Below are positions 6,172-24,981 of a DNA stretch of 62,020 bases, piece after piece (position 1 is the first letter of the stretch; each line of letters opens with the position of its first letter). The notes under the pieces were generated by a model. That model did no database searches. It saw nothing but the letters and a program-made list of their open reading frames with translations, and was not told the DNA's origin. The stretch covers positions 1 to 62,020 of the forward strand of contig JAPLNF010000297.1 in assembly GCA_026692965.1 (NCBI GenBank). The letters are read 5' to 3'. The position numbers and the translations under genes are program-made. Origin of the DNA: Planctomycetota bacterium. GTDB lineage: Bacteria; Planctomycetota; Planctomycetia; Gemmatales; Gemmataceae.

Positions 6172-7044
6172 ATGGAAAAGAAAACCATTCTAATCCAACT
6201 CGACCCTGATGCGCATGCTAGCGCCTTCGATCGGGTCGTTGCCATAGATTCCAATGTGGATGAACTATTCAGCTATGCGAATGTGCAACCCGATCAGGTA
6301 AGGGATCTTGTTCATGGGGCAATTTTTACCCGCGGTCCCAAAGATTTGAAAAATACTGCCATTTTTATCGGGGGCGGTAATGTTGAGAAAAGTGAAGCAT
6401 TGCTTGCCAAGGCTCTTGGTGCAATGGTGCCCGAATATGGCTTGCGGGTATCAGTGCTATTTGATGCCAATGGTTGCAATACGACCGCGGCAGCAGCGGT
6501 TCGAATAGCAGCAAAAACACTCGATCTAAAAGATAAAAAAGTATTGATTCTTGCAGGAACAGGCCCTGTCGGTCAAAGAGCAGCCTTGTTGTTAGCAAAG
6601 CTTGGCGCAAAAGTGTTTTTGTCATCCCGTACCATTGAAAAAGCCAAAGCAGCAGTTGATTCATTAGGAAAAAAAATAGGAGAGAGCCCTGCCCCGGTTG
6701 CAATTCAGGTTGCCAATGATGTTGAATTAAAAAGCGCATTAGAGGGGGTGGAGCTAGTAATCTCTACGGGGGCCGCTGGCGTTTGTCTTCTCCCTGAAAA
6801 AATTAGGCAGGCCGTTAGCAGCTTGAAAATGGTTGTTGATTTAAACGCTGTTCCGCCTATGGGTATCGAGGGAACAAGCGTGATGGATAAAGGCGCTATT
6901 CGGGAGGGTGTTATTTGCTACGGCGCAATTGGTGTGGGAGATTTGAAGATGAAAATTCATCGCGCAGCAATAGCAGCCTTGTTTACCCGAAATGATCAGG
7001 TCATGGATGCATTGGAAGTTTATGAAATCGCCCTGAATTTTTAA
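6172..7044 (+). CDS. NAD(P)-dependent methylene-tetrahydromethanopterin dehydrogenase (MtdA/MtdB/MtdC family)
   Basis: 290 aa. LDPDAHASAFD, IFIGGGNV and FDANGCNTTAAAAV are motifs of the Mtd family. A Rossmann-like LILAGTGPVGQRAA follows. Lies adjacent to fae. Confidence 0.8.
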   Translation: MEKKTILIQLDPDAHASAFDRVVAIDSNVDELFSYANVQPDQVRDLVHGAIFTRGPKDLKNTAIFIGGGNVEKSEALLAKALGAMVPEYGLRVSVLFDANGCNTTAAAAVRIAAKTLDLKDKKVLILAGTGPVGQRAALLLAKLGAKVFLSSRTIEKAKAAVDSLGKKIGESPAPVAIQVANDVELKSALEGVELVISTGAAGVCLLPEKIRQAVSSLKMVVDLNAVPPMGIEGTSVMDKGAIREGVICYGAIGVGDLKMKIHRAAIAALFTRNDQVMDALEVYEIALNF

Positions 7045-8292: not shown

Positions 8293-9834
8293 ATGGAACT
8301 TACCGTCAATAATGTTTATGGGTTGATCTTGCGAAGCAAGCTGATGAAGCTTGATGAGGCGAAGATCGTATTGGATCGATGGAAAGAAGAATCCAAAACT
8401 GCACAATCCGATGTGATAAAGTTTGCTAACTGGCTTGTGAGCCGAAAGTATGTGACCGAATACCAAGCTAAGCTTTTGATCAAAGGCCATGCGGATGGGT
8501 ATTTTATTAATAGTTATAAGATTTCGGAAAAGCTGGGAACGGGCCGCATGGGCGGTGTTTACAAAGCAGAGCATGAAACCGGACAAGTTGTTGCTCTAAA
8601 AGTGCTGCCACCATCTAAGTCGCGTGAAAAAAATTTCCTGATGCGCTTCCACCGCGAAGCTCAGATGAATATGGAATTGATTCACCCGAATATTGTTCGA
8701 ACTTTTGAAACTGGAGTTTACAACGGTGTTCACTACATGGTTATGGATTACCTTGAGGGTGAAACACTCGATCAGTTTTTGAAGCGCTGTGGAAAAATTC
8801 CTCCTGATGAAGCCTGCCATATTGTTTATCAGGCCCTTCGGGGGCTTGATTGTATTTTTCAACATGGGCTTGTGCATCGAGATTTAAAGCCTGCAAACAT
8901 GATGCTTGCAGGCCCCATTCTTACTTCTAAGGTAATGGATAAAACTTTAAAAATTCTCGATATGGGTTTGGGAAAGCTCACCAAGAATAAAGAGCCCTTG
9001 CATCAGGTTGTGACCGCCTTGAACCTGACCGATGAAGGGGCGATTTTGGGCACCCCTGATTACATGGCCCCCGAGCAGGCTAGGGATGCTCGAAATATTG
9101 ATATTCGTGCTGATATTTACGGTCTAGGTTGTGTTCTATATCACTTGTTGACGGGTCAACCGCCTTTCCCTGATACCAACATTATAAACCAAATTATCAG
9201 GCATCAGACCGAAACGCCAAAGCCTGTGAACCAATTTAATTCCAAAGTTCCAGAGGGATTAAATAAGATCATAAATACAATGCTTGCGAAGGAGCCATCA
9301 GATCGCTATCAGACGCCCGAAAAATGTGCTCAAGCACTTGCGATTTTCTTGAATTCGGGGCCTTTTGTCGCACCTTCTGCCCCCGATTCCGAAAACAAAC
9401 TTAAAAAATACCTCACTTGGCTTGAAACTTCAAAAACTGCCCTCAAGGAAAAGAATAAAAAAGAAGAGGGCATTCTCTATGACCCTCCCTCAGAAAATAA
9501 TGCGGATCAAGATGTTGATAGTGATCCAGGTAATGAAGACGATTATTCAGTTACATTCGTATCAAGTATGCCCAAGGAAACTGATTCTTTCGCTTTTGAT
9601 AATCCAGAACCTGTGTATAAAAAAGCTATCAGAAAATCAAAGCCTGCCTCGGTTGGAGCTTTAAACTTATCTCGCTTCACTCGAAATGAATTATTATTGC
9701 TGGGCACAGGGATTGGGTTGGGCGCCCTCGCAACTTTAATAGGTTGTATCGTTGCTTTGGCCATCTTTTCATCTTCAAAAAAAGAGAATGAAACATCACC
9801 CTCACATCAAATGGGTGGAGATGGTAAAAAATGA
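8293..9834 (+). CDS. Ser/Thr protein kinase (Hanks type) with C-terminal transmembrane anchor
   Basis: GTGRMGGVYKA, VALKVL, HRDLKPANMML, DMGLG and DYMAPEQ motifs. TM segment LLLLGTGIGLGALATLIGCIVALAIF near the C-terminus. About 70-aa pre-kinase N-terminal region. Confidence 0.85.
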   Translation: MELTVNNVYGLILRSKLMKLDEAKIVLDRWKEESKTAQSDVIKFANWLVSRKYVTEYQAKLLIKGHADGYFINSYKISEKLGTGRMGGVYKAEHETGQVVALKVLPPSKSREKNFLMRFHREAQMNMELIHPNIVRTFETGVYNGVHYMVMDYLEGETLDQFLKRCGKIPPDEACHIVYQALRGLDCIFQHGLVHRDLKPANMMLAGPILTSKVMDKTLKILDMGLGKLTKNKEPLHQVVTALNLTDEGAILGTPDYMAPEQARDARNIDIRADIYGLGCVLYHLLTGQPPFPDTNIINQIIRHQTETPKPVNQFNSKVPEGLNKIINTMLAKEPSDRYQTPEKCAQALAIFLNSGPFVAPSAPDSENKLKKYLTWLETSKTALKEKNKKEEGILYDPPSENNADQDVDSDPGNEDDYSVTFVSSMPKETDSFAFDNPEPVYKKAIRKSKPASVGALNLSRFTRNELLLLGTGIGLGALATLIGCIVALAIFSSSKKENETSPSHQMGGDGKK

Positions 9835-10979
9835 TTTTTCGTGCCAAGCATTACCAAACCGAACAAATGGTTGATGTTTATTGTAATGATGGCAAAATTG
9901 TTTCTGTAGAAAAAGCAGGGAACTTTGTCCCGGATCATCAGGCAGCATACATTGCCCCTGCGTTTTTTGATTTGCAAATCAATGGTGCTATGGGTGTTGC
10001 TTTTAGTGATATCAACCTTGATGAAAGTGGAATCAGAAAGGTTCTTTCGGTTTGCATGTTGCACGGGATTTCAGGGATTTGCCCAACAATTATAACAAAT
10101 TCCCACGATGTTTTGCTTCATGGCTTTAACACCCTTCGAAAAGCTTGTGAAAGTGATCCTGTGATTGCCCGTGCCATGCCCTGCTTTCATCTGGAAGGCC
10201 CTTATATAAGTAACGAAGATGGCCCGAGGGGCGCCCACCAGAAGCATTATGTTCGCAACCCAATTTATGATGAATTTAAGGAGTATCAGGAGGCATCTGG
10301 AAATCGAATAAAATTGCTGACACTTGCGCCAGAGCTTCCGGGTGCAATTGATTTTATTCGGAAAATGAGCCTTGAAGGTGTTGTCGTTGCGATTGGTCAT
10401 ACTGCAGCAAGCCCCATGATTATTCGAGATGCAATTTCAGCGGGTGCCCGCCTTTCCACACATTTGGGGAATGGATCTCATGCCATGTGGCCTAGGCATG
10501 AAAATTATTTTTGGGAGCAACTCGGTTGTGATTCGTTATCTGCAAGTATTATTACAGATGGGCATCACCTACCTGAAGCTCTGATAAAAACTATCGTCCG
10601 AGTCAAGCCAATCGAAAAACAAATAATTACATGCGATGCCAGTGGGCTCGCTGGGCTTCCCCCTGGAAAGTATTCGATGTGGAATCAGGAGATAGAAATA
10701 TTATCAAATGGGAAGGTTGTGGTGCCTAGAACACCCTTTCTGGCGGGCTCAGGCTCTTTCACAGATGATTGTGTTGCTCATTTAATGTCTCTTGGGGTTG
10801 TTTTAATAGGCCAAGCAATCGAGATGGCAACAAATGCGCCCAGAAGATTGCTTCAATTGCCAGAGATTAAAATTGAGGCGGGCAGCGAGGCGAATCTGAT
10901 CCTGTTTGATTCCAACAACGATGTACCGTTCCGGATTAATCGTGTGATTATTGAAGGCGAAGTGCTTAACAAAAGTTAA
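9831..10979 (+). CDS. nagA: N-acetylglucosamine-6-phosphate deacetylase family amidohydrolase
   Basis: PAFFDLQINGAMGVAFSD, HLEGPYIS, TLAPE, GHTAAS, THLGNG and ITDGHH are collinear with NagA metal and substrate motifs. Its ATG overlaps the kinase stop (ATGA at 9831-9834). Confidence 0.75.
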   Translation: MIFRAKHYQTEQMVDVYCNDGKIVSVEKAGNFVPDHQAAYIAPAFFDLQINGAMGVAFSDINLDESGIRKVLSVCMLHGISGICPTIITNSHDVLLHGFNTLRKACESDPVIARAMPCFHLEGPYISNEDGPRGAHQKHYVRNPIYDEFKEYQEASGNRIKLLTLAPELPGAIDFIRKMSLEGVVVAIGHTAASPMIIRDAISAGARLSTHLGNGSHAMWPRHENYFWEQLGCDSLSASIITDGHHLPEALIKTIVRVKPIEKQIITCDASGLAGLPPGKYSMWNQEIEILSNGKVVVPRTPFLAGSGSFTDDCVAHLMSLGVVLIGQAIEMATNAPRRLLQLPEIKIEAGSEANLILFDSNNDVPFRINRVIIEGEVLNKS

Positions 10980-11279: not shown

Positions 11280-12566
11280 ATGAGCCAAGCAATCTCCAAA
11301 GCTAAAATTCATGTCGAAAGAATGATGCACCGTAATAGTATCGCAGTTGCCGGTGAATCAATTGCGAGTTATGCACTATTGAAATTGATTCCAGCAGTTG
11401 GTGGCGGCGGGGCTTCAATCGGCATCAACATGGCCATGGTTTTGGATGTTTCAGGGTCAATGTATGAAGAAGATGGTACTGGTAAAAGCCGTATTAGTAG
11501 AGTTCAAGAAGCCGCTTGTTCTGCTTTGAATTTCTTAAGACCAAATGATTCGATTGCCATTGTTGCCTTTGCAAATAATGCTGAATTAGTATTGCCTACC
11601 ACTTTGGTTTCTCAAAAAGATAAAATTATTGATGTCATCATGCGCATTGATATGTTCAATGTTGATGCCGGCGGCACATCAATGGATCAAGGTATCGAAT
11701 TAGCCCTTGCTGAACTTCAGAAAAGTACGGGTACTGGAAATATCTCACATTTGGTTGTTCTTACCGATGGCGAAACTTCAGGCGAGCAGTTGTGCAAAGA
11801 ATACGCTAAAGCTTCTGCCGAGAAGAAAATTAATTTTAGTGTGATTGGTGTTGGCACCGAGTGGAATTCAGGTCTCATAAAAGATCTTGCATCATTATCA
11901 AATGGAAAATGGCATTACATTGATGTTAATCAGGTTGATTCTGCTCAGAAAGTTTTTGCTAGCGAGTTTCAAAGACTTGCAGCAGTAGGCTTTCGGGATG
12001 TGCAAATTCATTTTCGCCTAATGAAAGATATTAAAATCAGGCGAGTTCGCATGGTTGTGCCTGAAATTAAAGATTTGCCTTTGGTGGAAGTTGAAGATCG
12101 GCATTCTGTTGCGCAACTTGGCACCTTGGAAAAAGATAAGACCTCCCGTTATATTCTTGACCTTAGCCTTCCCAAACGGCCTGATGGAAAGTTTAAGCTT
12201 CTTGATGTTGAAATAACTTTTGATACGGGATCAGGTGTTAAAGAATCTAGTGGATTGATCCCCATTGAAATGGCATATACCGCTGCAGGTAATGGCTATA
12301 TTAATGCTGAAGTTGCAAAGCATATTGATGAAGTTCAGATTTTTGAATTAAACAAGAATCTGCAAAATGCCATTTCTACTGGTAATAATCAAGAAGCCGT
12401 TCGAGTTGCTCAAAGTATTGAGAAAAAAGGTGAAGTTATGGGTGCTAGGGCAGCAAAGAAAACAATGCTTGCCAAGCAGGTGCTTGCTGAAATTAATCAA
12501 GGCGGTAAAGTTTCTAAAAAGACTCAGTTGGCAGTTGATGATGCGGCACGTGCCGCTGATGAGTAA
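11280..12566 (+). CDS. cytoplasmic von Willebrand factor A (vWA) domain protein with intact MIDAS
   Basis: MVLDVSGSM (DxSxS), GGTSMDQG and VVLTDGETSG motifs. No signal peptide. K/A-rich helical tail. I prefer the ATG at 11280 (MSQAISK) over the TTG at 11241 in the ORF track. Confidence 0.8.
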   Translation: MSQAISKAKIHVERMMHRNSIAVAGESIASYALLKLIPAVGGGGASIGINMAMVLDVSGSMYEEDGTGKSRISRVQEAACSALNFLRPNDSIAIVAFANNAELVLPTTLVSQKDKIIDVIMRIDMFNVDAGGTSMDQGIELALAELQKSTGTGNISHLVVLTDGETSGEQLCKEYAKASAEKKINFSVIGVGTEWNSGLIKDLASLSNGKWHYIDVNQVDSAQKVFASEFQRLAAVGFRDVQIHFRLMKDIKIRRVRMVVPEIKDLPLVEVEDRHSVAQLGTLEKDKTSRYILDLSLPKRPDGKFKLLDVEITFDTGSGVKESSGLIPIEMAYTAAGNGYINAEVAKHIDEVQIFELNKNLQNAISTGNNQEAVRVAQSIEKKGEVMGARAAKKTMLAKQVLAEINQGGKVSKKTQLAVDDAARAADE

Positions 12567-12658
12567 TCTGTTTATCTGGCGTGATTAACAGGCAAGATGC
12601 CGCTATGGAATAGGAATTTAGTATTCAGTTTTAAGTCGAGTTTAAGAGAGGTGTTTCA

Positions 12659-13369
12659 ATGGTTGTATGTCCTTTTTGCCATTTTGAAAATGAAGACGGT
12701 GCCCTTTTTTGTGAGCAGTGCAAGTCTGATCTCACAGGTGTGGATTCTGCTCCGGTAGTACCTGTTGCTGCTGAGGCCCCGCCTCTTCCCGTTGCCGAAG
12801 CAATTGAGGAAGCTATACCTTTTGCCATGGCTGATGCGATTGAGGTCGTTGAAGAAGTTCCTTCTTTCCCAATGGCTGAGATGGCTGTAGAAGAGGTTCC
12901 ACCCTTGCCTGTTGCTGAAGCGATGCCGGAACCTGTTGTTGAAGAAGTTGCCCCTGCCCCAATTGCTGAAGAAGTTGCCCCCGCCCCAATCGCAGCGGTT
13001 CCTGTTGCCTCACCTGTTTCGGATGACCCTTATTTTGTGTCGGATTCTGCGAATCCCCGCTTGTATGTGGTGCGTGGCCAGAAACCTAAGGTCGAATTCC
13101 CAATTCTTGGCGGCCTTAACTTTGTCGGTAGAGCAGATGATAAACCTGTTGATATCGACCTTGAAGATCAAGAAAACCCCGAGCGAGTTTGGGCAAGTAG
13201 GCAGCATGCTGTTATTGAGTTCGAAGATAATAAAATAACTATCGAAGATCTTAATAGTTCAAACGGTACTTTCTTAAACCGAAATAAGATTTACCCCGGA
13301 CAGAAGATGCCACTCAAGGCTAACGATATGGTGCAAATTGGTAATATTCAAATGAAGGTTATGCTTTAA
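12659..13369 (+). CDS. zinc-ribbon / disordered P-A-E-V linker / FHA domain protein
   Basis: N-terminal CPFC...CEQC ribbon. About 110 aa of EEVPxxPxAE-like repeats. C-terminal FHA with FVGR, ASRQHA and SSNGTF motifs. Confidence 0.85.
   Translation: MVVCPFCHFENEDGALFCEQCKSDLTGVDSAPVVPVAAEAPPLPVAEAIEEAIPFAMADAIEVVEEVPSFPMAEMAVEEVPPLPVAEAMPEPVVEEVAPAPIAEEVAPAPIAAVPVASPVSDDPYFVSDSANPRLYVVRGQKPKVEFPILGGLNFVGRADDKPVDIDLEDQENPERVWASRQHAVIEFEDNKITIEDLNSSNGTFLNRNKIYPGQKMPLKANDMVQIGNIQMKVML
12941..12994 (+). repeat. 27-nt tandem duplication inside the FHA-protein linker
   Basis: GAAGAAGTTGCCCCTGCCCCAATTGCT (12941-12967) is followed directly by GAAGAAGTTGCCCCCGCCCCAATCGCA (12968-12994). It encodes EEVAPAPIA twice. 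Confidence 0.8.
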
Positions 13370-13396
13370 TAGTGCGCCTTCGAAGTTGATGTTTTG

Positions 13397-13432
13397 GCGC
13401 AGTTCGATAAACAACGGCTGCGCTTTTTTTTT
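13397..13432 (+). terminator. weak hairpin plus T9 run after the FHA gene (possible partial terminator inside the cluster)
   Basis: GCGCAG (13397-13402) ... CTGCGC (13418-13423) followed by TTTTTTTTT. The stem is short and the loop long. Confidence 0.35.
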
Positions 13433-13468
13433 GAATCTCTAACTTGGATTGTGTGAGTAATAGTAATC

Positions 13469-16138
13469 ATGATGATGACTTGCCCCAAGTGTTCCAGAGC
13501 TAATCCACAAGAAGCTGTTTATTGCTATTTCGATGGCTTTGTTTTAGGCGGTGCCGCTGCTGGAACGGGCCCCCTTGCAATCAATAGCCTTAGATTCCCA
13601 AGTCCATTTGTTTTTATGAGTGGCCGCTCCTGCCTTAATTTTGACGACCTTGCCATTGCCTGTCATGAAGAATCCAAGCCCGCTGCTGACATGTTAAAAC
13701 AAGGTTTCCTTGAATCTTTTCTTGCAAGTATTGGTCGAATCGATTTGTCGATGGCTGCGAAGGAAGCTGCGAAATTCCCTGATTCCTCTCGTGGTTTGGA
13801 CGAACTCTTGGGGAAGTTTCCTTCTTCTGTGTTGTCTGAAGCAAGGCTTAATCTTTCTTCTCAAGAAATCAATCTTGGGGTTCTAAGCAGAACAGCCAAG
13901 CGAGAAATTAAAATTACGATTGAAAATGGGGGTATGCGCCTTCTTTTTGGTTCCATCACTTCGGATAGTACTTGGCTTGCCATCGGGGAAACTGGGAATG
14001 CTTCGGTTAAGAATTTTCAAACCACTGGTGAATTAACGGTCCCGCTTCGGATTGTTCCTGAAAAATTACGCGCATCTGATAAGCCACTTGTTGCCAAATT
14101 AAAAATTGATTCTTCTGGTGGAAGTTCGGTGGTGCTAATTCGGGCCGAAGTCCCTGTCACGCCATTCCAACTTATGCCGCTTTCTGGGGCTCTCAACCCC
14201 AGGCAAATAGCTTCTAAAGCTAAAGCCAATGCTAAAGAATCTGCCATTCTTTTTGAAAACGGCTCTGTTGCCAAGTGGTACGAAAGCAATGGCTGGTCTT
14301 ATCCTGTGCAAGGGCCTAGCGCAACAGGAATGGGGGCAATTCAGCAGTTTTTTGAAGCGTTGGGTCTTACACCCCCGCCCAAAACTTTTATTAATCAAAC
14401 GGTGATCAATCTTGAAGGTGCTCCAGGGCAGGAACTTGTATTTGAGTTGACTGTTGGTACCGAAGATAAGAGGCCTGTTTTCGCTCATGGTTTTGCAGAT
14501 CAATCTTGGATTACTGCGAAAAACCCCAAGTTGACAGGTAGCAGTGCGGTTCTTGGATTTGTTATTCCTCAAATTCCTGATAGACCCGGTGAATTGTTGG
14601 TTTCAAAAATAGCAGTCACTTCTAATGGGAATCAGAAGTTTCTAGTGCAGGTAAATGTTCAAGTATCTGGAAAGTATGTGGCTCCAAAGGTTGAGCCATC
14701 GCCTGAGTTGGTTTTTACTAAGCAGCCAGTTTTTGTTCCTGGTGCCCCGCCCCCAACCGATATTCCAGAAGCTGAAGATACCATTAAAGTTGATTCAACT
14801 TTAAGAAAGAAAGCCAAAGGGCCTAATTCTTCGATCCCCTTGATTCATTTTGTGCCCTTTGCGGGTTTGGTTTCTTTGATGGTTATATTGTTGATAGCGG
14901 ATGCAGGTGTTGGGGTGGGTGGCAAAACTGAAGGGGGAGCAGCGGTAGCGAAAAATGAAAGCGCACAAAGTTCCTTTGGTTATTCCTTCGACATTGACAA
15001 AAAGTCTGAATTAAAGCTCGATTTTAGTCATAAGCCAAAGTCTAGGAATTATCGTTTTGGTCTTTTTGCTGCTGATAAAAAGGATCCTAAAGATGAGTCG
15101 AAAAATCTTAGGCTCACCTATGATCAGGAGGGTGATTCAAATAACACACGAGTTCGTATTGATGATTCAGACTTCTTGTTTGCCCAATTAAAAAGCACAA
15201 GTATTACTGAAGATAAAGAGGACTTTGAAAAGCGTGTATGGCGTGTTTCGTGTGATTATCGGTTAAAGGGTGAAAGAATTAAAGTTTCACAGTTTGTTCA
15301 AATTGTTCCCGGCAGTCAATCAGGCAACTTGGATACTTGTATTATTCGTTATACCGTTGAAAACAAAGGGAAAAACAGTCATAAAATTGGTCTTAGAATG
15401 ATGCTTGATACCTTCATTGGTAGCGAAGATGGGGTTCCGTTTGTTGTTCCAGGTATGGATGGGTTTGTCACGAAGTTTACTGAGTTTACTCAGAAAGATA
15501 TGCCAGATTTTATTGAGGCAATGCAGTTTCAAAATCTTGATACTCCTGGTGTTATTGCCCACCTTGGTTTAAAGGGCTTTCAGCTCCCCGATTGTGAACC
15601 AGAACCTTTATATAAACTCTATTTGGGTGAAAACCCAGGAAGTAAAGAGTTTGGCTACGATGCAGATGCTTCAGATCTAGCCATTAAAAAAGGCAAGGAT
15701 GGTTCTCGCTTTACTGATTCCGTTGCCTTCCTTTATTGGAATGAAAGAGACACCAACCCAGGTGAAGTCAGAGAATTTGTTTTTAGTTATGGTTTAGGGG
15801 AAATATCAAAACCGGATGGCAGCTCGGGCGGCAAACTTTCTGTAACCACCGGTGGTAACACTAACGCAGGTAAAACCTTCACCCTTACCGCTTTGGTTAA
15901 AGATGCCACGAAGGGTCAGGCTGTTATAATTGCTTTGCCTGAGGGCGTTAACCTTGCATCGGGTGAAACAAAAGAAAAAACAATTGTTGAGGTAGATAGG
16001 TCAACCCAGATGTCGCAGGTTTCGTGGAAGGTTAGTGCATCAAAGGCTGGGGTTTATTCGTTAAAGGTTGCAAGTGGGCAGTTTAGTTCGCAAACAAAAG
16101 TTCAGGTTCGTGAAGCTTCCAGTAGTTTGTTTAGGTAA
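13469..16138 (+). CDS. zinc-ribbon, single-pass membrane protein of unknown function (889 aa)
   Basis: N-terminal CPKC...YC ribbon-like motif (only 3 Cys). About 450 aa with two beta-rich, Ig-like-looking segments. One TM (IPLIHFVPFAGLVSLMVILLIADAGVGV). About 400 aa follow with no motif I recognise, ending in another Ig-like segment. Confidence 0.7.
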   Translation: MMMTCPKCSRANPQEAVYCYFDGFVLGGAAAGTGPLAINSLRFPSPFVFMSGRSCLNFDDLAIACHEESKPAADMLKQGFLESFLASIGRIDLSMAAKEAAKFPDSSRGLDELLGKFPSSVLSEARLNLSSQEINLGVLSRTAKREIKITIENGGMRLLFGSITSDSTWLAIGETGNASVKNFQTTGELTVPLRIVPEKLRASDKPLVAKLKIDSSGGSSVVLIRAEVPVTPFQLMPLSGALNPRQIASKAKANAKESAILFENGSVAKWYESNGWSYPVQGPSATGMGAIQQFFEALGLTPPPKTFINQTVINLEGAPGQELVFELTVGTEDKRPVFAHGFADQSWITAKNPKLTGSSAVLGFVIPQIPDRPGELLVSKIAVTSNGNQKFLVQVNVQVSGKYVAPKVEPSPELVFTKQPVFVPGAPPPTDIPEAEDTIKVDSTLRKKAKGPNSSIPLIHFVPFAGLVSLMVILLIADAGVGVGGKTEGGAAVAKNESAQSSFGYSFDIDKKSELKLDFSHKPKSRNYRFGLFAADKKDPKDESKNLRLTYDQEGDSNNTRVRIDDSDFLFAQLKSTSITEDKEDFEKRVWRVSCDYRLKGERIKVSQFVQIVPGSQSGNLDTCIIRYTVENKGKNSHKIGLRMMLDTFIGSEDGVPFVVPGMDGFVTKFTEFTQKDMPDFIEAMQFQNLDTPGVIAHLGLKGFQLPDCEPEPLYKLYLGENPGSKEFGYDADASDLAIKKGKDGSRFTDSVAFLYWNERDTNPGEVREFVFSYGLGEISKPDGSSGGKLSVTTGGNTNAGKTFTLTALVKDATKGQAVIIALPEGVNLASGETKEKTIVEVDRSTQMSQVSWKVSASKAGVYSLKVASGQFSSQTKVQVREASSSLFR

Positions 16139-16152
16139 CGGAATTTAGCCAT

Positions 16153-17070
16153 ATGAGTTTTAATCTTTTTCTTTACTATTGTGCGATATTTGGTGCCTAT
16201 GCGGCCTTAAGTGCTGCATTTATATCCAGATTGGTAACCAAAAATATATCTTCTGAAATATGGCAATCCGTGATTGATGGTGCTTTAGTAGGCGCGTTTA
16301 TTTCTTTTGCTGTTGGTGTTCTTGATACGGTTTGGAGTACCGGGAAGTCTGACGTTAAAAAGCTTGTAATTCGCTCCTTGGGCGCTGGCTTTGTTGGCCT
16401 TTTTGGTGGCATTTTGGGAGGTGTTACGGGTTCGTTTATTGTTCGCATTACTGGAGTCCAATTTTTTGTTCTAATCGGTTGGACGATTTCTGGCCTACTT
16501 ATTGGCTTGTCACTTGGGCTTTTTGATTTGGTATTTGCACTTGCAACAAAGTCCCCTGCCCCTCATGACAACAAAATTAAAAATGGGCTTATGGGTGGTG
16601 CACTGGGTGGTTTTCTTGGTGGTGCATTCTTTTTGTTCTTCAAATTAAGCCTTGGGGCCATTTTTGACAGAGAGAATCTTCTTAGTGCTAGTGGTCTTGG
16701 GTTTGTTGCCTTGGGTGGTGCTGTTGGTTTCTTTATTGGTTTGGCGCAAGTGGTGTTAAAGGAAGCTTGGGTGCGTGTTGAAGCGGGTAAAAGAATTGGG
16801 AAAGAACTTATTCTTTCTAAGCCTGAAACCTTTTTTGGAAGGGCCGAAACCTGTGACATAGGCCTGTTCGGTGATAATTCGATTGAAAAGATTCATGCGA
16901 AATTGTTAATGCAAAAAAATCGGTACTTGATTGCAGATGCTGGTAGTGCTTCGGGAACTTTTCTGAATGATCAGAAAGTTACCAAACCCACCGAACTAAA
17001 GGCGGGGGATCTTATTCGCTTGGGAAGTTATCTTTTAAGGTTTAACGAGAAGCCTGGGAAAAAGAAATGA
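16153..17070 (+). CDS. glycine-zipper multi-pass membrane protein with C-terminal FHA domain
   Basis: Several TM segments rich in GxxxG (GAGFVGLFGGILGGVTGSF, GGALGGFLGGAFFLFF, GLGFVALGGAVGFFIGLA). Then FFGRAE...GSASGTFLN...GDLIRLG, an FHA-like domain. Starts 14 nt after the preceding gene. Confidence 0.8.
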   Translation: MSFNLFLYYCAIFGAYAALSAAFISRLVTKNISSEIWQSVIDGALVGAFISFAVGVLDTVWSTGKSDVKKLVIRSLGAGFVGLFGGILGGVTGSFIVRITGVQFFVLIGWTISGLLIGLSLGLFDLVFALATKSPAPHDNKIKNGLMGGALGGFLGGAFFLFFKLSLGAIFDRENLLSASGLGFVALGGAVGFFIGLAQVVLKEAWVRVEAGKRIGKELILSKPETFFGRAETCDIGLFGDNSIEKIHAKLLMQKNRYLIADAGSASGTFLNDQKVTKPTELKAGDLIRLGSYLLRFNEKPGKKK

Positions 17071-17111
17071 TCTTTATTCTTTTACAGGTTCATAAATTAA
17101 GGTCTTAAGCT

Positions 17112-18590
17112 ATGCCGATAGTCTTTGGTTGCCCGAAATGTAACATGAAAATGCAACTCCCCGATAATTCGGTGGGTAAGACCTTTGCGTGCCCAACCTG
17201 CAAAGTTCCGTTTACAGTTCCAGCTTCTGCGTCTCCAGTAGCTCCTTCAGCGCTTTCAGTAAATATACCGGCTCCGGTTGTAAATAAGCCCGCTGTTTCG
17301 CCCGGGTCTGCGCCAGTTGCTGCAACGCCTAAAGTTGTGAAAGCTGCAGATTCCAGTCAGGCTGCCTCCAAGCCAAGTACTCCTGTGATTGGGCCTATTA
17401 ACTGCCCTGCTTGTACAGCGCAACTTCTGTCTGGAGCGATTTCTTGTATGGATTGTGGTTACCTTTTGCAGGCTGAAAGTACCTTGGCAGAAGGTGACGG
17501 TGTAAGTCCTGCCATTTGTACTAATCCTGTTTGCGGATCTGCCAACCCTCCTGGGGAACGAAACTGTCAGCGTTGCGGTCAAGTTCTTCCATTTGCCGCA
17601 GGGCATTTAATTAATAATCGATATCGAATTGAAAAGCAGTTGGCGATAGGTGGTTTTGGTGCTGTTTATCTTGCAACGGATATTAAAGAAGCGAACAGGC
17701 CTGTAGCAATCAAGGATATGATTTGCGAAGATCCTGGGGAATTTGATATTCGATTGAACTTTTTCAGGCGTGAAGCAGACATTCTGAAATCATTGGATTC
17801 TGTTTCCATCGTGCCAAAAGTTTATGATTTGATTGAACAAGGTGAGCGGGCTTATCTTGTTCTTGAATTTATCAAGGGTAAGGATTTGATGAAAATCCTT
17901 GAATCGAATGGACATACTCCATTCCCGATCGAAAGTGTGATTGAGTGGGGGCGAAGTATTTGCGATGTGCTTCAGCATATGCATTCTCAGGTTCCTCCTT
18001 TGGTTCATCGCGATTTGAAGCCTGAAAATGTTATGCTTCTTGAAGATAAAAAATCCATCAAAATGATCGACTTTGGTACAGCCAGGGATTTGGGTAAAAA
18101 TCAAAAAGACAGGCATGCCGCGAAGACTAAAGTTTATACAGAAGGTTACGCGCCCTTAGAGCAAATTGCAGGTAAGCCTGAACCTCGTAGCGATCTTTTT
18201 GCACTCGCTTGCACCCTCTACCAATTAGCTACAGGTAAGGTTCCAGAAGGTTCGATCACTGTTCATGAAATTGATCTTTTACTGAAAGATACCACCAACC
18301 CGATTCCCCCGCAGTCGCAATGGCTCTTCGAAATGATCAAAGTTAATTTAAGTGAAGATCCTAACGAACGCTATTATAGCGCTCGGGAAATCAAGGCTGA
18401 TCTAGAAAAAAAACAGGTTACCAAAGAAGTGCCTTGTTCAAAATGTGCTTCAATGAACAAAGTTCGTCAGCCTTTTTGTGGTAAATGTGCCGAGCCTTTA
18501 ACCGACTCCACCCCTCCTTGTTATTACTGTGGTAAGAATAACAGGATGGGTAGTCGATGTTGTATTCATTGTGGCAACAGGCTTCGATAA
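17112..18590 (+). CDS. Ser/Thr protein kinase flanked by five zinc ribbons
   Basis: Three N-terminal ribbons: CPKC..CPTC, CPAC..CMDC, CTNPVC..CQRC. Kinase core: IGGFGAVYLA, VAIKDM, HRDLKPENVML, DFGTARDL, GYAPLEQ. Two C-terminal ribbons: CSKC..CGKC and CYYC..CIHC. Confidence 0.88.
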   Translation: MPIVFGCPKCNMKMQLPDNSVGKTFACPTCKVPFTVPASASPVAPSALSVNIPAPVVNKPAVSPGSAPVAATPKVVKAADSSQAASKPSTPVIGPINCPACTAQLLSGAISCMDCGYLLQAESTLAEGDGVSPAICTNPVCGSANPPGERNCQRCGQVLPFAAGHLINNRYRIEKQLAIGGFGAVYLATDIKEANRPVAIKDMICEDPGEFDIRLNFFRREADILKSLDSVSIVPKVYDLIEQGERAYLVLEFIKGKDLMKILESNGHTPFPIESVIEWGRSICDVLQHMHSQVPPLVHRDLKPENVMLLEDKKSIKMIDFGTARDLGKNQKDRHAAKTKVYTEGYAPLEQIAGKPEPRSDLFALACTLYQLATGKVPEGSITVHEIDLLLKDTTNPIPPQSQWLFEMIKVNLSEDPNERYYSAREIKADLEKKQVTKEVPCSKCASMNKVRQPFCGKCAEPLTDSTPPCYYCGKNNRMGSRCCIHCGNRLR

Positions 18591-18637
18591 GCCAATGTTC
18601 CTAAAATTATTTGATAATGCTTTAGAGGTGATTTTCG

Positions 18638-20818
18638 ATGCATACTGATCCTTCTTCCTCCAATAACCATGAACCCCAAGCGGAGATGCAAGGGGATATT
18701 CCTCTGGCAATGCCCGTTGAAACCGATGATCAGTTAGCTGAGGGTTTTGTACCCATGGCCTTGCCTATTGAGATAGAAGATGGCGCATCGAATGTTGTTG
18801 TTTCCCAGAGTGAACTGAATGATTCTTCACCAACGGTTTTGCCTGAAGTGGTTGTTCCGCAGAATGATTCCAAGCCTGAAGCAGTAGTAATTCTATGCAA
18901 GGTGTGTGGGTCTCGAAGAGAGCAAGATAATAGTTCATGTCAGGATTGCGGTTATTATTTCACTGAACTTGATCTGGCAGGGGCGGTAGTAGTTGCAGAT
19001 GGTGTAGGTGCATCAGTTGGTTCCGATTTCGTAATTGCAGGCAGATATAAGTCTACAAAAGTACTACGGGAATTCGCAGGTGTAAAAATTCAAGCTGGAG
19101 TTGATATTGAAGCTCTAGGCGGCCCGGTTGATGTTTTGATTTATTCACAAGCAGATGCTGGCGAGCAAATCATCGAGACCGCTAAAGAGGTCGCACCCGA
19201 AACTGATGAGTCCGATGATTTTTTACCAAGCTTTGATGATGCTTTGCTTTCTGGTTCAGGCGGAATTGAAGTGACGAGTGAAATGCCAAAGTTGTTGGTA
19301 TGGCCTAATTTGGGTTGGTTAAGATCGACCTTGGATGCTGCGGATACAGTTGGCTTGCCTAAAGTTCTTTTTGGTGGCACTGAAAATTCCACCAACTATC
19401 TTGTTCTTGAAATTCCCACTGGAAAAGACCTATGGGAAGTTTGGGACGATGAAAGTCAAAACGCCAGCATCAGATTTTCGTATCTGCAGGATCTTGCTCG
19501 CATATTGGTATCGCTACACAAAGTCGGTGGATTTCTTGAATTTGTGCGCCCTGAAAGTGTTGTGTTGACCAGTGAAGGTAAATTAAAGTTAAAAGATGTT
19601 TTGGAAATTCTGCCTCTTCCTTTTCCCCCGGGCAGTCCTGTGCGCGGAACCTTATATACTCCCCCAGAGTTGTTGTCGGGCAAGGGTTGCACCTCACCTA
19701 GGCCTTCTCTTTATAGCTTTGGTGCGTTGATTTATTCGCTGGAAATACTGCATCGTGAATTAAGTGAAAATGATTTTGAAAAACCAGGGGTACCCAAGCC
19801 TTTCATACCTAGATTCCCTGATATTCATCCCGCGTTTGGCAGGTTGATTTCAAAAACGTTTCGTACCGAAATTCATGCAAGATTCCCTACTGATGAAGCG
19901 GGCCGTGATGATAAAAGTGGGTTTACAGAACTTATCGCAACGCTAGCTTCAGTAGGCCGCAGTTTAGATAGGTGCAGGCTTGAAATTGCTAGTTGGACAA
20001 CCACGGGTATGGTTCGTACGGGCAATGAAGATGCTTTTGCTCTTATGCATGCCACCGAATCGCGCCAGGATGATTTAACGGATACTGCTCTGGTGTTTTT
20101 GGCGGATGGTATGGGCGGTTATGAGGCTGGAGAAATTGCTGCTGCGATGACTATGCAGATTCTTCGGCAAAACCTTACCATGAATAAAATGTTTGCTCAA
20201 TTTGCTGGGGGCTCGGCCTTCGCTAATGATGCAGCAAGCCCGCCGCCTAAAGGCGAAACCCATGCCCCCGCAGAGCTTGATGTGGAAGCTTGCAAGATGT
20301 TGTTTAAAGGTGCTCTTAAAGATGCAAATCGCCAAATCTTTACTGCTTCCAGAGCTCCGGGCAGCAAAAGGCGTGGTATGGGTTGCACTGCTGAAGCCGC
20401 TTATATTGATGGCAAAAATCTGGTTGTTGGTCATGTCGGCGATAGCAGGGTTTATCATCTTTCCCAGGGTGAGTTAATACAAGTTACGAGAGATCAAACT
20501 TTGGTAAATCGACTTGTGGAGCTTGGAAGCATTACTGCTGAAGAGGCCGAGGATCACCCACGAAAAAATGAACTTCAGCAAGCTATTGGTGGCCAACCGG
20601 ATGTAGAAGTAGGTATTTATCATGCACGAGTTCTTCCAGGGGACTGGGTGTTTGTTTGTTCGGATGGCTTAACCAATCACATTTCAAATAAAGATCTTAA
20701 AACCATGCTTGCCAATGAGGCGCAATCTGCGCAAATGGCAGCCCGAAGGCTGGTCAACCTTGCAAATATTGAGGGTGCAACAGATAATGCAACCGTGGTT
20801 GTTATCCGTTGTACCTAA
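18638..20818 (+). CDS. zinc-ribbon / pseudokinase / PP2C Ser/Thr phosphatase fusion
   Basis: Acidic N-terminus, then a CKVC..CQDC ribbon. Kinase-like fold lacking HRD and DFG (LEFVRPESVVL, KLKDVLE, YTPPE). C-terminal PP2C with RTGNEDAF, LADGMGGYEAG, HVGDSRVY, VCSDGL and TDNATVVV. AGAGGTG ribosome-binding site upstream. Confidence 0.88.
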   Translation: MHTDPSSSNNHEPQAEMQGDIPLAMPVETDDQLAEGFVPMALPIEIEDGASNVVVSQSELNDSSPTVLPEVVVPQNDSKPEAVVILCKVCGSRREQDNSSCQDCGYYFTELDLAGAVVVADGVGASVGSDFVIAGRYKSTKVLREFAGVKIQAGVDIEALGGPVDVLIYSQADAGEQIIETAKEVAPETDESDDFLPSFDDALLSGSGGIEVTSEMPKLLVWPNLGWLRSTLDAADTVGLPKVLFGGTENSTNYLVLEIPTGKDLWEVWDDESQNASIRFSYLQDLARILVSLHKVGGFLEFVRPESVVLTSEGKLKLKDVLEILPLPFPPGSPVRGTLYTPPELLSGKGCTSPRPSLYSFGALIYSLEILHRELSENDFEKPGVPKPFIPRFPDIHPAFGRLISKTFRTEIHARFPTDEAGRDDKSGFTELIATLASVGRSLDRCRLEIASWTTTGMVRTGNEDAFALMHATESRQDDLTDTALVFLADGMGGYEAGEIAAAMTMQILRQNLTMNKMFAQFAGGSAFANDAASPPPKGETHAPAELDVEACKMLFKGALKDANRQIFTASRAPGSKRRGMGCTAEAAYIDGKNLVVGHVGDSRVYHLSQGELIQVTRDQTLVNRLVELGSITAEEAEDHPRKNELQQAIGGQPDVEVGIYHARVLPGDWVFVCSDGLTNHISNKDLKTMLANEAQSAQMAARRLVNLANIEGATDNATVVVIRCT

Positions 20819-20917: not shown

Positions 20918-21592
20918 ATGAATCAAAGTCGCATTGATATTTCATTCATTCGCAAAGAGCAGATTGTGGATGCTGCTGTTTGTGTGATTGCGCAGCAAGG
21001 GTTGCAGAATTTTTCGCTTTCTGAAATTGAAAAGAAAGCGCATATGAGTCGAGGTCAGCTTACTTATTATTTTCCTGCAAAGGAAGATATTTTGCTGGCT
21101 GTTTTTGATCGGTTTCTTTTCTTGATGCAGATTGATTGTCAAGTTCAGGATAAAAATACAGGAAAGCCTTCTGCAGATCAACTTGAAGGGTGGGAGCGCA
21201 TTTCAAGAATTATTGAAAATGTGTTAGCAAGGCCCGTCGAGGGGGATGGTTTTCATGCTCTTCAATACACTTTTCTTTCGCAAATCTCCCATAGGTCCGA
21301 CTTTCGCTTAAGGCTTAGTGCTTTGTATGAGGAATGGCGCATCAGGATCACCGCTGATTTAAAACACGAGTTTACAGCAGTTACCAACGATTTGGATTTG
21401 CGTAGCCTTGCAACCTTAATCGAGGCTATTTTGCATGGCTTATCGATGCAGCGGGCCGCTGATCCTGAGGCATTTGATCCTAAAACCATGTCTGAGCTGG
21501 TTTTAAACATTCTATTTACTTACATGAAATCCAAGCTTGGTTTAAATAAACAAGTCATTAAAAAGAAAAGATCTGAAGGAGTTCGACGATGA
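20918..21592 (+). CDS. TetR/AcrR family transcriptional regulator
   Basis: N-terminal HTH FSLSEIEKKAHMSRGQLTYYFPAKEDIL. 224 aa. Its stop overlaps the next start (ATGA). Confidence 0.85.
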   Translation: MNQSRIDISFIRKEQIVDAAVCVIAQQGLQNFSLSEIEKKAHMSRGQLTYYFPAKEDILLAVFDRFLFLMQIDCQVQDKNTGKPSADQLEGWERISRIIENVLARPVEGDGFHALQYTFLSQISHRSDFRLRLSALYEEWRIRITADLKHEFTAVTNDLDLRSLATLIEAILHGLSMQRAADPEAFDPKTMSELVLNILFTYMKSKLGLNKQVIKKKRSEGVRR

Positions 21593-22836
21593 ACATTCTC
21601 AATAGTTCGCAACCAGTTTCAAAAAACCAAGCCAGTTTGGAAGAACGAGTTAAATCGCTCAAAATTAGTTCTGCCCCAGAAACCCAATCGATGCCTAAAT
21701 CGACAATTTTCGCTTGGGGACTTTGCCTGATCATGATGATCGTTGCAGGTCTGATGGCTTGGAGGAGTTATAAAATGACACCTACAGGAACCGATTCAGT
21801 TCAGCAAAAGCTTCCTGGCCAAATAAACAAATCGTCCGGGACAGATACGGTGAAAACAGGTTCCGAAAAATCCTCTCCAGCACCTTCGGTCCCCGGAAAA
21901 GAGAATATTGTTCTTGAGGCCAAAGGTTACATTATCCCAATGCATCAGATTCAAGTCAGTCCGAAAGTTCCGGGGATGATCGAAAAGCTTTATGTTGAAG
22001 AAGGTAAAAGAGTAAAAAAAGGAGATGTTCTTGCGGTGCTTGAATCCATCGATTACAAGGCTGATTTTGATAAGGCTAAAGCTGTTTTGCAAGCTGCAAC
22101 TCAAAGAAAGCTGGAGATTAAAAATGGTAATAGGCCTGAAGAAATCGAGCAATCAAAACAAGAGTATCTTGAATGCCTTTCAAACCTTGAGCAATTACGG
22201 TCCGATTTAGTTCGAAATCGCAGGCTCACGGGTTCTGCTTCACTTTCACAGCGGGAAATGGATGTTGCTTCTTTTAGCTTTGAAGGTGTGGAACGTAAGT
22301 GTAGCAAGCTGAAATCTGCTTATGATTTAATGGTCAAGGGGCCAAGGGAAGAGAAGCTCAAAGCAGCAGAAGCAGAGGTCGATCAAGCGGTTGCAGATTT
22401 GGCAAAGGCTCAATGGCGGCTTAATAATTGCGTGATAGTTGCTCCCGTTTCAGGTGTTATTCTGACTAAAAAAGCTGAAGAAGGAAATATTATCAACCCT
22501 GCTGCTTTTAATATTTCTGCTTCGCTTTGTGAAATGGCCGATCTCACCGATCTTGAAGTTGATCTTTCCATTCAAGAGCGGGATGTAGCTTCGGTTTTTA
22601 AAGGTCAAAAATGCCTTGTCATGCCAGAGGCTTTTCAAAATTATGCACCCTTCTTGAAGGTTCATCCTAAAGGTTATGAGGGTACGATTTCGAGATTAAT
22701 GCCAATCGCTGATCGCGGTAAAGGTGCGATACCTGTTCGTGTTAAAATTAAAGTTTCTCCTGAAGAAGAGGGCGTTTATTTAAAGCCCGATATGGGTGTG
22801 ATTGTTTCTTTTATGAAAGATCAATCTTCCAAGTAA
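21589..22836 (+). CDS. HlyD/MacA-type periplasmic adaptor (membrane fusion protein)
   Basis: N-terminal TM (IFAWGLCLIMMIVAGLMAW), a lipoyl-like VEEGKRVKKGDVLAVLE, a coiled-coil hairpin, and a beta-barrel C-terminus. Confidence 0.8.
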   Translation: MNILNSSQPVSKNQASLEERVKSLKISSAPETQSMPKSTIFAWGLCLIMMIVAGLMAWRSYKMTPTGTDSVQQKLPGQINKSSGTDTVKTGSEKSSPAPSVPGKENIVLEAKGYIIPMHQIQVSPKVPGMIEKLYVEEGKRVKKGDVLAVLESIDYKADFDKAKAVLQAATQRKLEIKNGNRPEEIEQSKQEYLECLSNLEQLRSDLVRNRRLTGSASLSQREMDVASFSFEGVERKCSKLKSAYDLMVKGPREEKLKAAEAEVDQAVADLAKAQWRLNNCVIVAPVSGVILTKKAEEGNIINPAAFNISASLCEMADLTDLEVDLSIQERDVASVFKGQKCLVMPEAFQNYAPFLKVHPKGYEGTISRLMPIADRGKGAIPVRVKIKVSPEEEGVYLKPDMGVIVSFMKDQSSK

Positions 22837-22851
22837 AGAATTTTAAAAAGG

Positions 22852-23580
22852 ATGATCATGGCTGAAAATATTGTTGTTCGAGTCGAAAACCTTACCAAAA
22901 GTTTTAGCAGGGGCAGTGAAAAAATTGATGTCCTTGAAGAATTGACACTCGAGGTTGATTCGGGAGAATTCTTGGCTCTTATGGGCCCTAGTGGTTCTGG
23001 TAAAACTACTCTGCTTAATATCATTGCTGGACTTGATACGCCTACGAGTGGAACTGTTACCGTTGGAAAAAATCTGATTAGCAAGATGAGTGAATCCATG
23101 CTTGCATCATGGCGAACCCGGCATGTGGGTTTTGTTTTTCAGTTCTATCATCTCTTGCCAGTTTTAACTGCATACGAGAATGTTGAATTGCCCCTGCTTC
23201 TTTTGCCTATGACCCGGGCTCAGCGAAAAGTCCAAGTGATGAATGTTCTTGATCTTGTTGGTTTGTCTGGGCGAATAAATCATATTCCTGGTCAACTTTC
23301 TGGTGGGCAACAACAGCGTGTTGGTATTGCTCGTGCAATTGTAACCGATCCTGAATTAATCGTTGCGGATGAACCCACTGGGGATTTGGATTCAAAGTCT
23401 GCGGATGAGATTCTTGATTTAATGGGGGTACTGCAGAAAACTTTGGGTAAAACCATCATTATGGTTACTCATGATCCAAGGTCTGCGGCTCGAGCCCAGC
23501 GGGTGTTGCAACTTGAAAAAGGCAAGCTCGTCAAGGATTCCAGAAACTTTTCTTATGTCACCGGCAATGCTGGCAATTAG
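22852..23580 (+). CDS. ABC transporter ATP-binding protein (MacB/LolD type)
   Basis: [12 protein letters not shown] (Walker A), [14 protein letters not shown] (signature), [11 protein letters not shown] (Walker B), VTHD (H-loop). Confidence 0.9.
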
Positions 23581-23591
23581 GGATTAGATTC

Positions 23592-24962: not shown

Positions 24963-24981
24963 GTAATATCGGAGCCTTTAT

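Follow-up and report, generated by a model that had tools for sequence, protein, structure and literature searches.

We describe a six-gene cluster in a 62,020-nucleotide (nt) stretch of DNA, hereafter the window, from a bacterium of the Planctomycetota (family Gemmataceae; GenBank assembly GCA_026692965.1, contig JAPLNF010000297.1, positions 1 to 62,020). The six genes (g1 to g6) encode a vWA protein, a zinc-ribbon FHA protein, a single-pass membrane protein, a polytopic membrane protein ending in an FHA domain, a Hanks-type Ser/Thr kinase, and a pseudokinase fused to a PP2C phosphatase, and they form a conserved functional unit, since their order is kept down to ~40% identity of g3 and between unrelated flanking genes, which rules out chance adjacency. 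We lean toward reading the cluster as a Gemmatales/Planctomycetia-specific, chromosomally inherited, receptor-coupled phosphothreonine (pThr) switch. Its soluble core (vWA, Zn-FHA, kinase, and phosphatase) is an already known kind of switch; the coupling of this core to the g3/g4 membrane pair and the receptor-like g3 family appear undescribed in the searchable literature, where neither the six-gene architecture nor the families of g3 and g4 turned up. The genes are as follows:

11280-12566, + strand: g1, vWA protein, 428 amino acids (aa) from the ATG at 11280
12659-13369, + strand: g2, Zn ribbon + FHA protein, 236 aa
13469-16138, + strand: g3, membrane protein with a Zn ribbon, 889 aa
16153-17070, + strand: g4, multi-transmembrane + FHA protein, 305 aa
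17112-18590, + strand: g5, Hanks kinase, 492 aa
18638-20818, + strand: g6, pseudokinase + PP2C, 726 aa

An initial annotation of the window had described six closely spaced, co-directional open reading frames (ORFs) behind a 300-nt gap, and this description holds, with intergenic gaps from g1 to g6 of 92, 99, 14, 41, and 47 nt and 300 nt upstream of g1. The promoter-like gap that it placed before a downstream TetR operon measures 99 nt from g6 to the TetR gene and is not distinctive, because internal gaps are just as large. Scans for consensus promoters and terminators gave counts at or below shuffle expectation and neither support nor oppose an operon. The longest ORF of g1 opens at a TTG at 11241, and its start was set at the ATG at 11280 because orthologues align from there. 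The GC content of the cluster (0.42-0.44) is similar to that of the adjoining sequence and the rest of the window is housekeeping in content (chorismate synthase, aspartokinase, an aminoacyl-tRNA synthetase, GreA, a pseudouridine synthase, Fae, and a tetrahydromethanopterin (H4MPT) dehydrogenase), which together place the cluster in a housekeeping setting. As the initial annotation had stated for the last three classes, the scanned window ORFs include no mobile-element, type VI secretion system (T6SS), cell-wall, or division genes, and Rfam and tRNA scans of the window gave no matches. The nearest relatives are freshwater metagenome-assembled genomes (MAGs) of Gemmataceae/Planctomycetota, with g3 identity up to 97-98%.

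The evidence for a unit comes from a synteny survey, in which the window proteins were compared by tblastn with the 80 best of 265 loci carrying a g3 relative and orthologues were extracted from these loci. The order vWA, Zn-FHA, g3, g4, kinase, pseudokinase-PP2C (abbreviated V-F-3-4-K-P) was found in close relatives and also where g3 is only 37-42% identical, and it recurs in Gemmataceae and other Planctomycetota genomes. Gene calls at two distant loci confirm the order and reveal flanks unrelated to those of the window, namely malic enzyme and DUF1501 genes in one and pyruvate-dehydrogenase genes and a rotamase in the other. Among the 61 g3-type genes with enough flanking sequence, 20 stand in the complete order, nine in V-F-3 only, 13 are a short g3 paralogue (g3') preceded by a g4 paralogue (g4'), and nine belong to a bare g3 + g4 pair. 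Neighborhood conservation, which the initial annotation had named as a check, is therefore strong, and it supports the proposed self-contained writer, eraser, reader, and vWA unit with two membrane proteins. The best conserved gene is g1, which is 60-68% identical where g3 is ~40% identical, and the stable order across the bacterial family makes inheritance of the cluster look vertical. A homologue search with g1 returned at least 120 matches, which among the matches listed were all close planctomycete orthologues and thus uninformative on distribution.

These observations bear directly on the possibility that there is no functional unit and that the adjacency is a by-product of kinase and FHA gene-family expansion. 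Gemmataceae carry ~100-140 Ser/Thr kinases (STKs) per genome, so that STK genes are very abundant (PMC11032199), many FHA proteins are present too, two STK genes beyond the cluster lie in the same window, and partial versions of the cluster exist. We nevertheless regard this explanation as very improbable and as already largely refuted by the survey, given the recurrence of the same six-gene order between unrelated flanks, the co-directional genes with gaps of 14-99 nt, and the complementary functions of writer, eraser, reader, and adaptor.

Several variants of the arrangement accompany the six-gene form. Most of the distant clusters have eight genes in the order g4'-g3'-V-F-3-4-K-P, of which the window and its close relatives lack the first pair. 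This extra upstream pair consists of a second transmembrane (TM) FHA protein (~320-360 aa) and a short g3 paralogue (~600 aa) with the N-terminal module but no matching ectodomain, and it occurs in survey loci L081 (4737-7509), L083 (4393-7288), L016, L017, L025, L052-L054, L058, and L060. Several g3 paralogues are found per genome. In each of the genomes closest to the window, another contig bears a further g3-g4 pair, which is diverged (L056, L057, L061, L062, and L064; ~31% and 33-35% identical) and has no vWA, FHA, kinase, or phosphatase gene adjoining, and in four of these five loci a distant amidohydrolase-like gene lies ~5 kb downstream of the pair. Eight MAG records (L005, L008, L037, L040, L046, L066, L070, and L075) are labelled 'uncultured Alcaligenaceae', 'Candidatus Kuenenia', or similar despite a planctomycete-type cluster, and their gene content suggests that these taxonomic labels are wrong.

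The soluble proteins g1 and g2 resemble a pair known from archaea. The initial annotation had read g2 as a Zn ribbon, a linker, and a canonical FHA domain, and its motifs bear this out: Pfam assigns the FHA domain at 2.7e-16 together with a Zn ribbon, and a Cys4 zinc finger (aa 4-21) is followed by a P/A/E/V-rich low-complexity linker and the FHA domain (aa 135-234), with C4/C7/C18/C21, G157, R158, S180, R181, H183, N202, G203, and T204 invariant in 32 sequences (FHA motifs GR, SRxH, and NGT). Sulfolobus ArnA gives the best PDB match of g2 (5a8i_A, E 3.4e-8, spanning aa 4-230), 8s05_C is matched as well, and the zinc finger is identical to that of ArnA at 11 of 20 residues, with the signature CxxCx(F/Y)EN(E/D)DxALFCxxC. 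The resemblance to ArnA, which extends to the full architecture and to specific sequence similarity, is well supported by these alignments. The g2 linker (window 12740-13050, aa 28-130) contains repeated (E)EVxPxPxAEA-like units and differs in length between orthologues; the ArnA linker at the same place is P/Q-rich and compositionally similar.

Beside g2 lies g1, which reads as a cytoplasmic, MIDAS (metal-ion-dependent adhesion site)-competent vWA protein in an ArnB-like position. Pfam models VWA, VWA_2, and VWA_3 match it, the vWA domain covers aa 50-226, and the MIDAS residues D56, S58, S60, T133, and D163 are invariant in 24 orthologues; hydropathy revealed no TM helix, signal peptide, or hydrophobic segment, in line with the signal-less vWA protein with a complete MIDAS of the initial annotation. 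Behind the vWA domain, a region that appears β-rich (aa ~227-335) is followed by an apparently helical C-terminal tail, a layout read from the sequence rather than predicted, and the tail carries two KKT(M/Q)LA motifs (T395 and T415) that are invariant in the same 24 orthologues. PDB matches of g1 include the ArnB-type chains 5a8j_A and 8s05_A at 1e-5 to 4e-7. The suggested equivalence of g1 with ArnB draws on position, on the cytoplasmic vWA domain with its MIDAS, and on this β-rich-then-helical layout.

In Sulfolobus, the zinc finger of ArnA binds ArnB at its β-sandwich and C-terminal domain, and in the S. acidocaldarius module, on which the kinases ArnC and ArnD and the phosphatase PP2A act, phosphorylation of the ArnB C-terminal domain by ArnC lets the ArnA FHA domain bind and converts a loose into a tight complex, which PP2A reverses (PMC6509490, PMC12852372, PMC7472852). 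The present cluster likewise encodes a protein with a zinc finger, low-complexity linker, and canonical FHA domain beside a cytoplasmic vWA protein, and a Hanks kinase and a Ser/Thr phosphatase, here encoded in the cluster with intact motifs, would act on the pair; the C-terminal helical domain of ArnB bears the phosphosites, and g1 has its invariant Thr-bearing, apparently helical tail. Unlike the archaeal system, this one is bacterial and keeps kinase and phosphatase in the same cluster, its phosphatase is a PP2C fused to a pseudokinase where Sulfolobus has PP2A, it incorporates two membrane proteins (g3 and g4), it lacks an archaellum, and no sequence similarity to ArnB can be detected in the C-terminal half of g1.

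The predicted writer is g5, a soluble Hanks Ser/Thr kinase with every motif of an active kinase. The kinase domain (aa 171-427; Pfam Pkinase at 3.8e-38, plus DZR Zn ribbons) is preceded by three Cys4 ribbons (aa 7-155) and followed by two more (aa 442-487). In 28 sequences GxGxxG, VAIK, HRDLKPxN, DFG, and APxE are all invariant, as are T339 and T343 of the activation loop, and the cysteines of the five ribbons are invariant or nearly so; g5 has no TM helix by hydropathy and no PASTA domain. Its counterpart g6 comprises a Zn ribbon (C87/C90/C101/C104), a pseudokinase domain (~aa 125-440), and a PP2C domain (aa 454-725), with Pfam matches to PP2C_2 and PP2C and orthologues annotated as Pkinase + PP2C. 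Across 25 sequences the kinase-like domain is without the G-loop, the VAIK Lys, the HRD Asp, and the catalytic Asn, and the PP2C metal-binding motifs RxxNED, DGMGG, GDSR, SDG, and DNxT are invariant; the NCBIfam model Stp1_PP2C_phos scores 209 bits, just under its cut-off of 230. The protein is therefore best described as a predicted eraser with a kinase-like, putative docking domain, and the apparently active Hanks kinase and the pseudokinase fused to an apparently active PP2C of the initial annotation both stand on these residue patterns.

For analogues, the initial annotation had pointed to T6SS and to the actinobacterial FhaA/FhaB locus, and it missed the closest ones, i.e., the ArnA/ArnB pair, the TerY-P triad, and an operon of Deinococcus radiodurans. 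The last, DRA0331-DRA0334, encodes a vWA protein, a Ser/Thr protein kinase, an FHA protein, and an FHA-PP2C protein (bioRxiv 10.64898/2026.01.23.701218). It has the same four soluble functions in one operon, its phosphatase carries an extra docking domain, and its FHA protein modulates the kinase/phosphatase balance. That docking domain is a KI-FHA there and a pseudokinase here, membrane components are absent there, the gene order differs, and DRA0331-DRA0334 is linked to DNA-damage kinases, unlike the cluster here. The initial annotation had also mentioned vWA, kinase, PP2C, and FHA associations described in the comparative literature. A paper on vWA-centred conflict systems does describe actinobacterial neighborhoods of vWA, active kinase (often Zn-ribbon-fused), and PP2C, and no architecture resembling the present one is noted in it (PMC7159879).

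What distinguishes the cluster is g3. The window protein matches no Pfam or NCBIfam model, so that profile searches assigned domains to the other five proteins only, and some orthologues gave only weak immunoglobulin (Ig)-type Pfam matches (DUF5717_N, BACON, and HYDIN-Ig). Hydropathy places a single TM helix at aa 458-476, and basic residues on its N-terminal side indicate that the N-terminal half is cytoplasmic. AlphaFold2 models of both halves, searched with Foldseek, give the following domain map:

aa 1-28: Zn ribbon
aa 40-400: two units, each a helical bundle and an ASH-type Ig domain, followed by a disordered linker
aa 458-476: TM helix
~aa 510-780: galactose-mutarotase-like β-supersandwich
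~aa 790-885: C-terminal Ig domain

The N-terminal half (aa 1-455) was modelled at a predicted local distance difference test (pLDDT) score of 82.5 as a Zn ribbon and two helical-bundle + Ig repeats, and its Ig domains match ASH/MSP-type domains of ciliary central-pair proteins and of CEP192 in the PDB, in agreement with the weak Ig-type matches of the orthologues. The C-terminal half (aa 480-889; 73 homologues) was modelled at pLDDT 88.9 as a large β-supersandwich followed by an Ig domain, and its PDB matches are supersandwich domains of polysaccharide lyases, GH38/GH94/GH65/GH116 enzymes, OpgD/MdoD, aldose epimerases, and YidC P1. The 889-aa Zn-ribbon single-pass protein of the initial annotation is thus retained, and the post-TM domain that it could not assign now has a predicted fold. 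The Zn ribbon (13469-13552) has three invariant cysteines (C5, C8, and C19) and an invariant D22 at the place of the fourth ligand, a CxxC...CxxD variant. A relationship of the ectodomain to viral receptor-binding proteins was considered and rejected, as Foldseek against viral structures gave one generic FN3/β-sandwich match.

Averaged over the orthologues, identity to the window g3 falls from 78% in the Zn ribbon, the best-conserved part of the protein, to 51-53% in the N-module, 37-40% in the ectodomain, and 19% in the linker. In close relatives, ectodomains are 82-99% identical, near the level of the N-module, and variation is confined to the linkers; diversifying selection on the ectodomain was rejected for this reason. 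An exhaustive search of 1.84 billion representative proteins placed 2339 clusters (50% identity) in the g3 family at E ≤ 1e-3, with many matches covering only the N-module (aa 1 to ~410), and in the genomes examined its members come nearly all from Planctomycetota. A single TM helix stands directly behind the N-module in 108 of 116 long representatives, and the outer parts elsewhere are WD40 + HEAT, HEAT, PPC, or CBM35-like; one WD40/HEAT variant adjoins a different kinase gene and has no g4 neighbor. Such a combination, in which the cytoplasmic module and its single TM helix stay constant and the outer domain can be exchanged, is the hallmark of a receptor family. We propose that g3 is a receptor or scaffold, the receptor reading being suggested by the modelled folds, the TM position, the varying outer domains, and the better-conserved Zn ribbon and N-module.

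The near-constant neighbor of g3-type genes in the survey is g4, a glycine-rich protein with ~6 TM helices (aa 1-205; hydropathy), a conserved juxtamembrane helix, and a cytoplasmic FHA domain (aa 209-299). Pfam assigns the latter to FHA (58.6 bits) and to Yop-YscD_cpl (57.9 bits; cut-off 33.2). The phosphate-binding Ser is replaced by Glu245 in 44 of 55 orthologues and paralogues and the canonical Asn by Ser, Gly, or Asp at position 267, so that the domain is non-canonical and probably no pThr reader. The initial annotation was right about a multi-TM protein with a C-terminal FHA domain and counted one pThr reader too many, as only g2 is canonical. In being membrane-attached and having lost the pThr residues, g4 resembles the YscD/EscD-type phospho-independent FHA proteins at the domain level only; type III secretion genes are absent.

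One alternative is that g3 and g4 are the regulated output, i.e., a trans-envelope scaffold or a glycan-handling complex licensed by Thr phosphorylation. The same logic operates in the T6SS PpkA/PppA/Fha1 pathway, in YscD-type FHA ring proteins, and in the mycobacterial control of wall synthesis by PknB/PstP/FhaA/FhaB. Both the T6SS and the mycobacterial systems co-encode a Hanks kinase, a PP2C, and FHA proteins that control a membrane-associated process, and FhaB/FipA is, like g4, an FHA protein with a membrane anchor. The FHA domains of g4 and g2 both pass the Yop-YscD_cpl threshold, the best NCBIfam FHA match is FhaB/FipA, and the best enzyme matches are of PknB and Stp1 types. The g3 ectodomain shares its predicted fold with accessory domains of glycan-processing enzymes, OpgD/MdoD, and YidC P1, and its invariant polar cluster (D622, T623, R643, D647, T648, D654, G655, D750, and S751) could be an active site. 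We nonetheless judge an envelope machine unlikely. All equivalog scores lie under their cut-offs (TIGR03354 VI_FHA, the T6SS TagH model, 32 and 30 bits vs 120; FhaB_Rv0019c 46-55 vs 125; PknB_PASTA_kin for g5 161 vs 450), which sets the cluster apart from T6SS and cell-wall loci and leaves the analogies of the initial annotation without family-level backing. No secretion ATPase, T6SS, PASTA, RodA/penicillin-binding-protein, or division genes occur among the scanned window ORFs or in the distant loci. Unlike PpkA and PknB, the kinase here is predicted to be soluble, any sensor domain residing on the separate protein g3, and ectodomains that are swapped while the cytoplasmic module stays constant are more in keeping with sensors than with parts of a machine.

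A second alternative holds that the cluster is a conflict or threat-sensing system of TerY-P or Esr type, in which g3 detects attack by phages or epibionts, the vWA/kinase/phosphatase/FHA core transduces the signal, and either the glycine-zipper protein g4 permeabilizes the membrane or the zinc-finger (ZnF)-FHA protein triggers a defensive program. As summarized in PMC10542128 after Anantharaman et al. 2012 and Gao et al. 2020, the TerY-P triad consists of a vWA protein, a PP2C, and a Ser/Thr kinase bearing one or more C-terminal zinc ribbons, is predicted to be a metal-sensing or metal-dependent phosphorylation switch, is associated with restriction systems, and has also been reported to act in defence on its own. 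This composition is matched by g1, g6, and g5, the last with two C-terminal (and three N-terminal) Cys4 ribbons. The actinobacterial Esr pathway joins a surface sensor and a vWA protein to a kinase/phosphatase pair and has an FHA or ZnF-FHA protein as its output (PMC13622651, preprint), and the logic of a surface protein with a variable sensor and a Thr-phosphorylation-controlled, often ZnF-bearing FHA output protein is alike here, where genomes encode several g3 paralogues and the ectodomains of the family vary. In PADLOC, the 25 best matches listed for g5 are kinase models, though generic STK ones (PD-T4-6, mad6, MkoA, and C3a189).

We consider this explanation quite improbable as well. The Pfam vWA-TerF-like model scores g1 at 21.9 bits, below its cut-off of 29.4, so that by profile g1 does not class as a TerY-like vWA protein. 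PADLOC, whose TerY-P model content is unconfirmed, gave no match for g1-g4, and for g6 it gave four weak kinase-model matches on the pseudokinase (PD-T4-6, E 3e-4 to 8e-3) and none on the PP2C. There is no MoxR ATPase, nuclease, toxin, or other effector, and no AAA+/MoxR gene was found in the window cluster or in orthologous clusters. In contrast to TerY-P, FHA proteins and a membrane pair are added here, no link to tellurite resistance, restriction systems, or CoCoNuT was seen, and the locus looks vertically inherited and housekeeping-like, with order stable across the family, g1 well conserved, and housekeeping flanks free of mobile-element genes. Esr differs in its dependence on two components absent here, a MoxR AAA+ ATPase and a filamentous β-propeller sensor, the cluster has no Esx/type VII secretion linkage, and the g3 ectodomain in this orthologue group, far from being hypervariable among close relatives, is under ordinary purifying selection.

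The receptor-coupled pThr switch that we prefer could work as follows. The proteins g3 and g4 would form a membrane complex, the g4 FHA domain binding the cytoplasmic module of g3 phospho-independently in the manner of a YscD-type FHA, and the g3 ectodomain, whose predicted fold is of a carbohydrate-binding type, would bind a ligand in the periplasm or at the cell surface, a glycan being the likeliest candidate. The state of this ligand would control whether the Zn-ribbon kinase g5 is recruited to the complex or is active there. Once engaged, g5 may phosphorylate the C-terminal tail of g1, with T395 and T415 in KKT(M/Q)LA as candidate sites, and the g2 FHA domain would then clamp phospho-g1 while the g2 zinc finger holds g1 constitutively, a counterpart of the ArnA/ArnB loose-to-tight transition. 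The phosphatase g6 would dock through its pseudokinase domain and reset the switch. The output would be the assembly state of g1 and g2, with the MIDAS face left free for a partner, and it would act on a target encoded elsewhere.

Several points weigh against this scheme. Every interaction in it, and the direction of signalling, is inferred. No output component (effector, enzyme, or DNA-binding protein) was identified in any locus examined, as the initial annotation had found for enzyme and DNA-binding outputs in the window. The Foldseek matches of the g3 ectodomain have E values of 1e-7 to 5e-4 and TM-scores of 0.2-0.4, which limits the similarity to the level of the fold; that it binds a ligand is conjecture, and it could instead be an enzyme or serve a structural purpose. 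No significant profile match in the PDB, including to ArnB, was obtained with the C-terminal half of g1, and BatB-type vWA domains outscore ArnB over g1, so that, outside the vWA fold, a homology between g1 and ArnB is unproven. Finally, the nine V-F-3 clusters have no g4, kinase, or phosphatase gene nearby, and opposite-strand genes come next in the two inspected (L044 and L046), where the cluster thus ends at g3; the six-gene form is therefore not obligatory. A bolder proposal, which we offer only tentatively and with clear doubt, is that g3 represents a large, undescribed, modular family of single-pass receptors that recruit a Zn-ribbon Hanks kinase onto an ArnA/ArnB-type switch, with g4 as co-receptor.

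If this were true, g3-type receptors would signal with neither a fused kinase nor a histidine kinase, a third architecture of bacterial transmembrane signalling, and the archaeal Arn network, TerY-P triads, and Esr-type pathways would be linked as one ancient vWA-FHA phospho-switch. The ArnA/ArnB switch has so far been studied only in Sulfolobales, and the locus would extend it to bacteria, with the specific prediction that the invariant KKT(M/Q)LA threonines in the g1 tail are phosphosites read by the g2 FHA domain. Gemmataceae combine eukaryote-like numbers of Ser/Thr kinases with unusually complex envelopes and endomembranes, and their phospho-signalling is almost entirely not understood; a conserved and compact cluster whose parts have clear predicted roles offers a tractable entry to it. 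The g3 domain map and the receptor hypothesis would also apply to thousands of metagenomic proteins without a Pfam or NCBIfam match.

The genes that adjoin the cluster were weighed as further members. Directly upstream (8293-10979, + strand) lie a Hanks kinase (513 aa) and an amidohydrolase-like protein (382 aa) with a 4-nt overlap, and this pair keeps its position in relatives down to ~59% g3 identity (L001-L012); at the distant locus L025 it is inverted and downstream of the cluster (amidohydrolase 55% identical). It was rejected as part of the cluster because, L025 apart, only near relatives conserve it, and it could reflect a loose functional link or just regional synteny. Downstream (20918-26325, + strand), 99 nt past the cluster, TetR, HlyD-family, ABC ATPase, and two FtsX permease genes form a MacAB-like efflux operon, and at the distant loci L023 and L071 TetR and HlyD homologues are again found downstream of the cluster (~50% and 32-46% identical; 0.8-2.5 kb away). 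This operon was likewise rejected, being present in close relatives and L023/L071 and absent from most distant clusters.

Elsewhere in the window, four ORFs of 211-678 aa (28523-29509, - strand; 30345-30980, + strand; 33897-35933, - strand; 46210-48033, - strand) have no Pfam match at E ≤ 1e-5. The Fae and methylene-H4MPT dehydrogenase-like genes (5592-7044, + strand) stand 82 nt apart; H4MPT-linked one-carbon transfer genes are typical of Planctomycetota. At 40266-43692, a Ser/Thr kinase gene (468 aa, - strand) adjoins genes for a HEAT-repeat protein and a PQQ/BamB-like β-propeller protein, forming a small signalling neighborhood.

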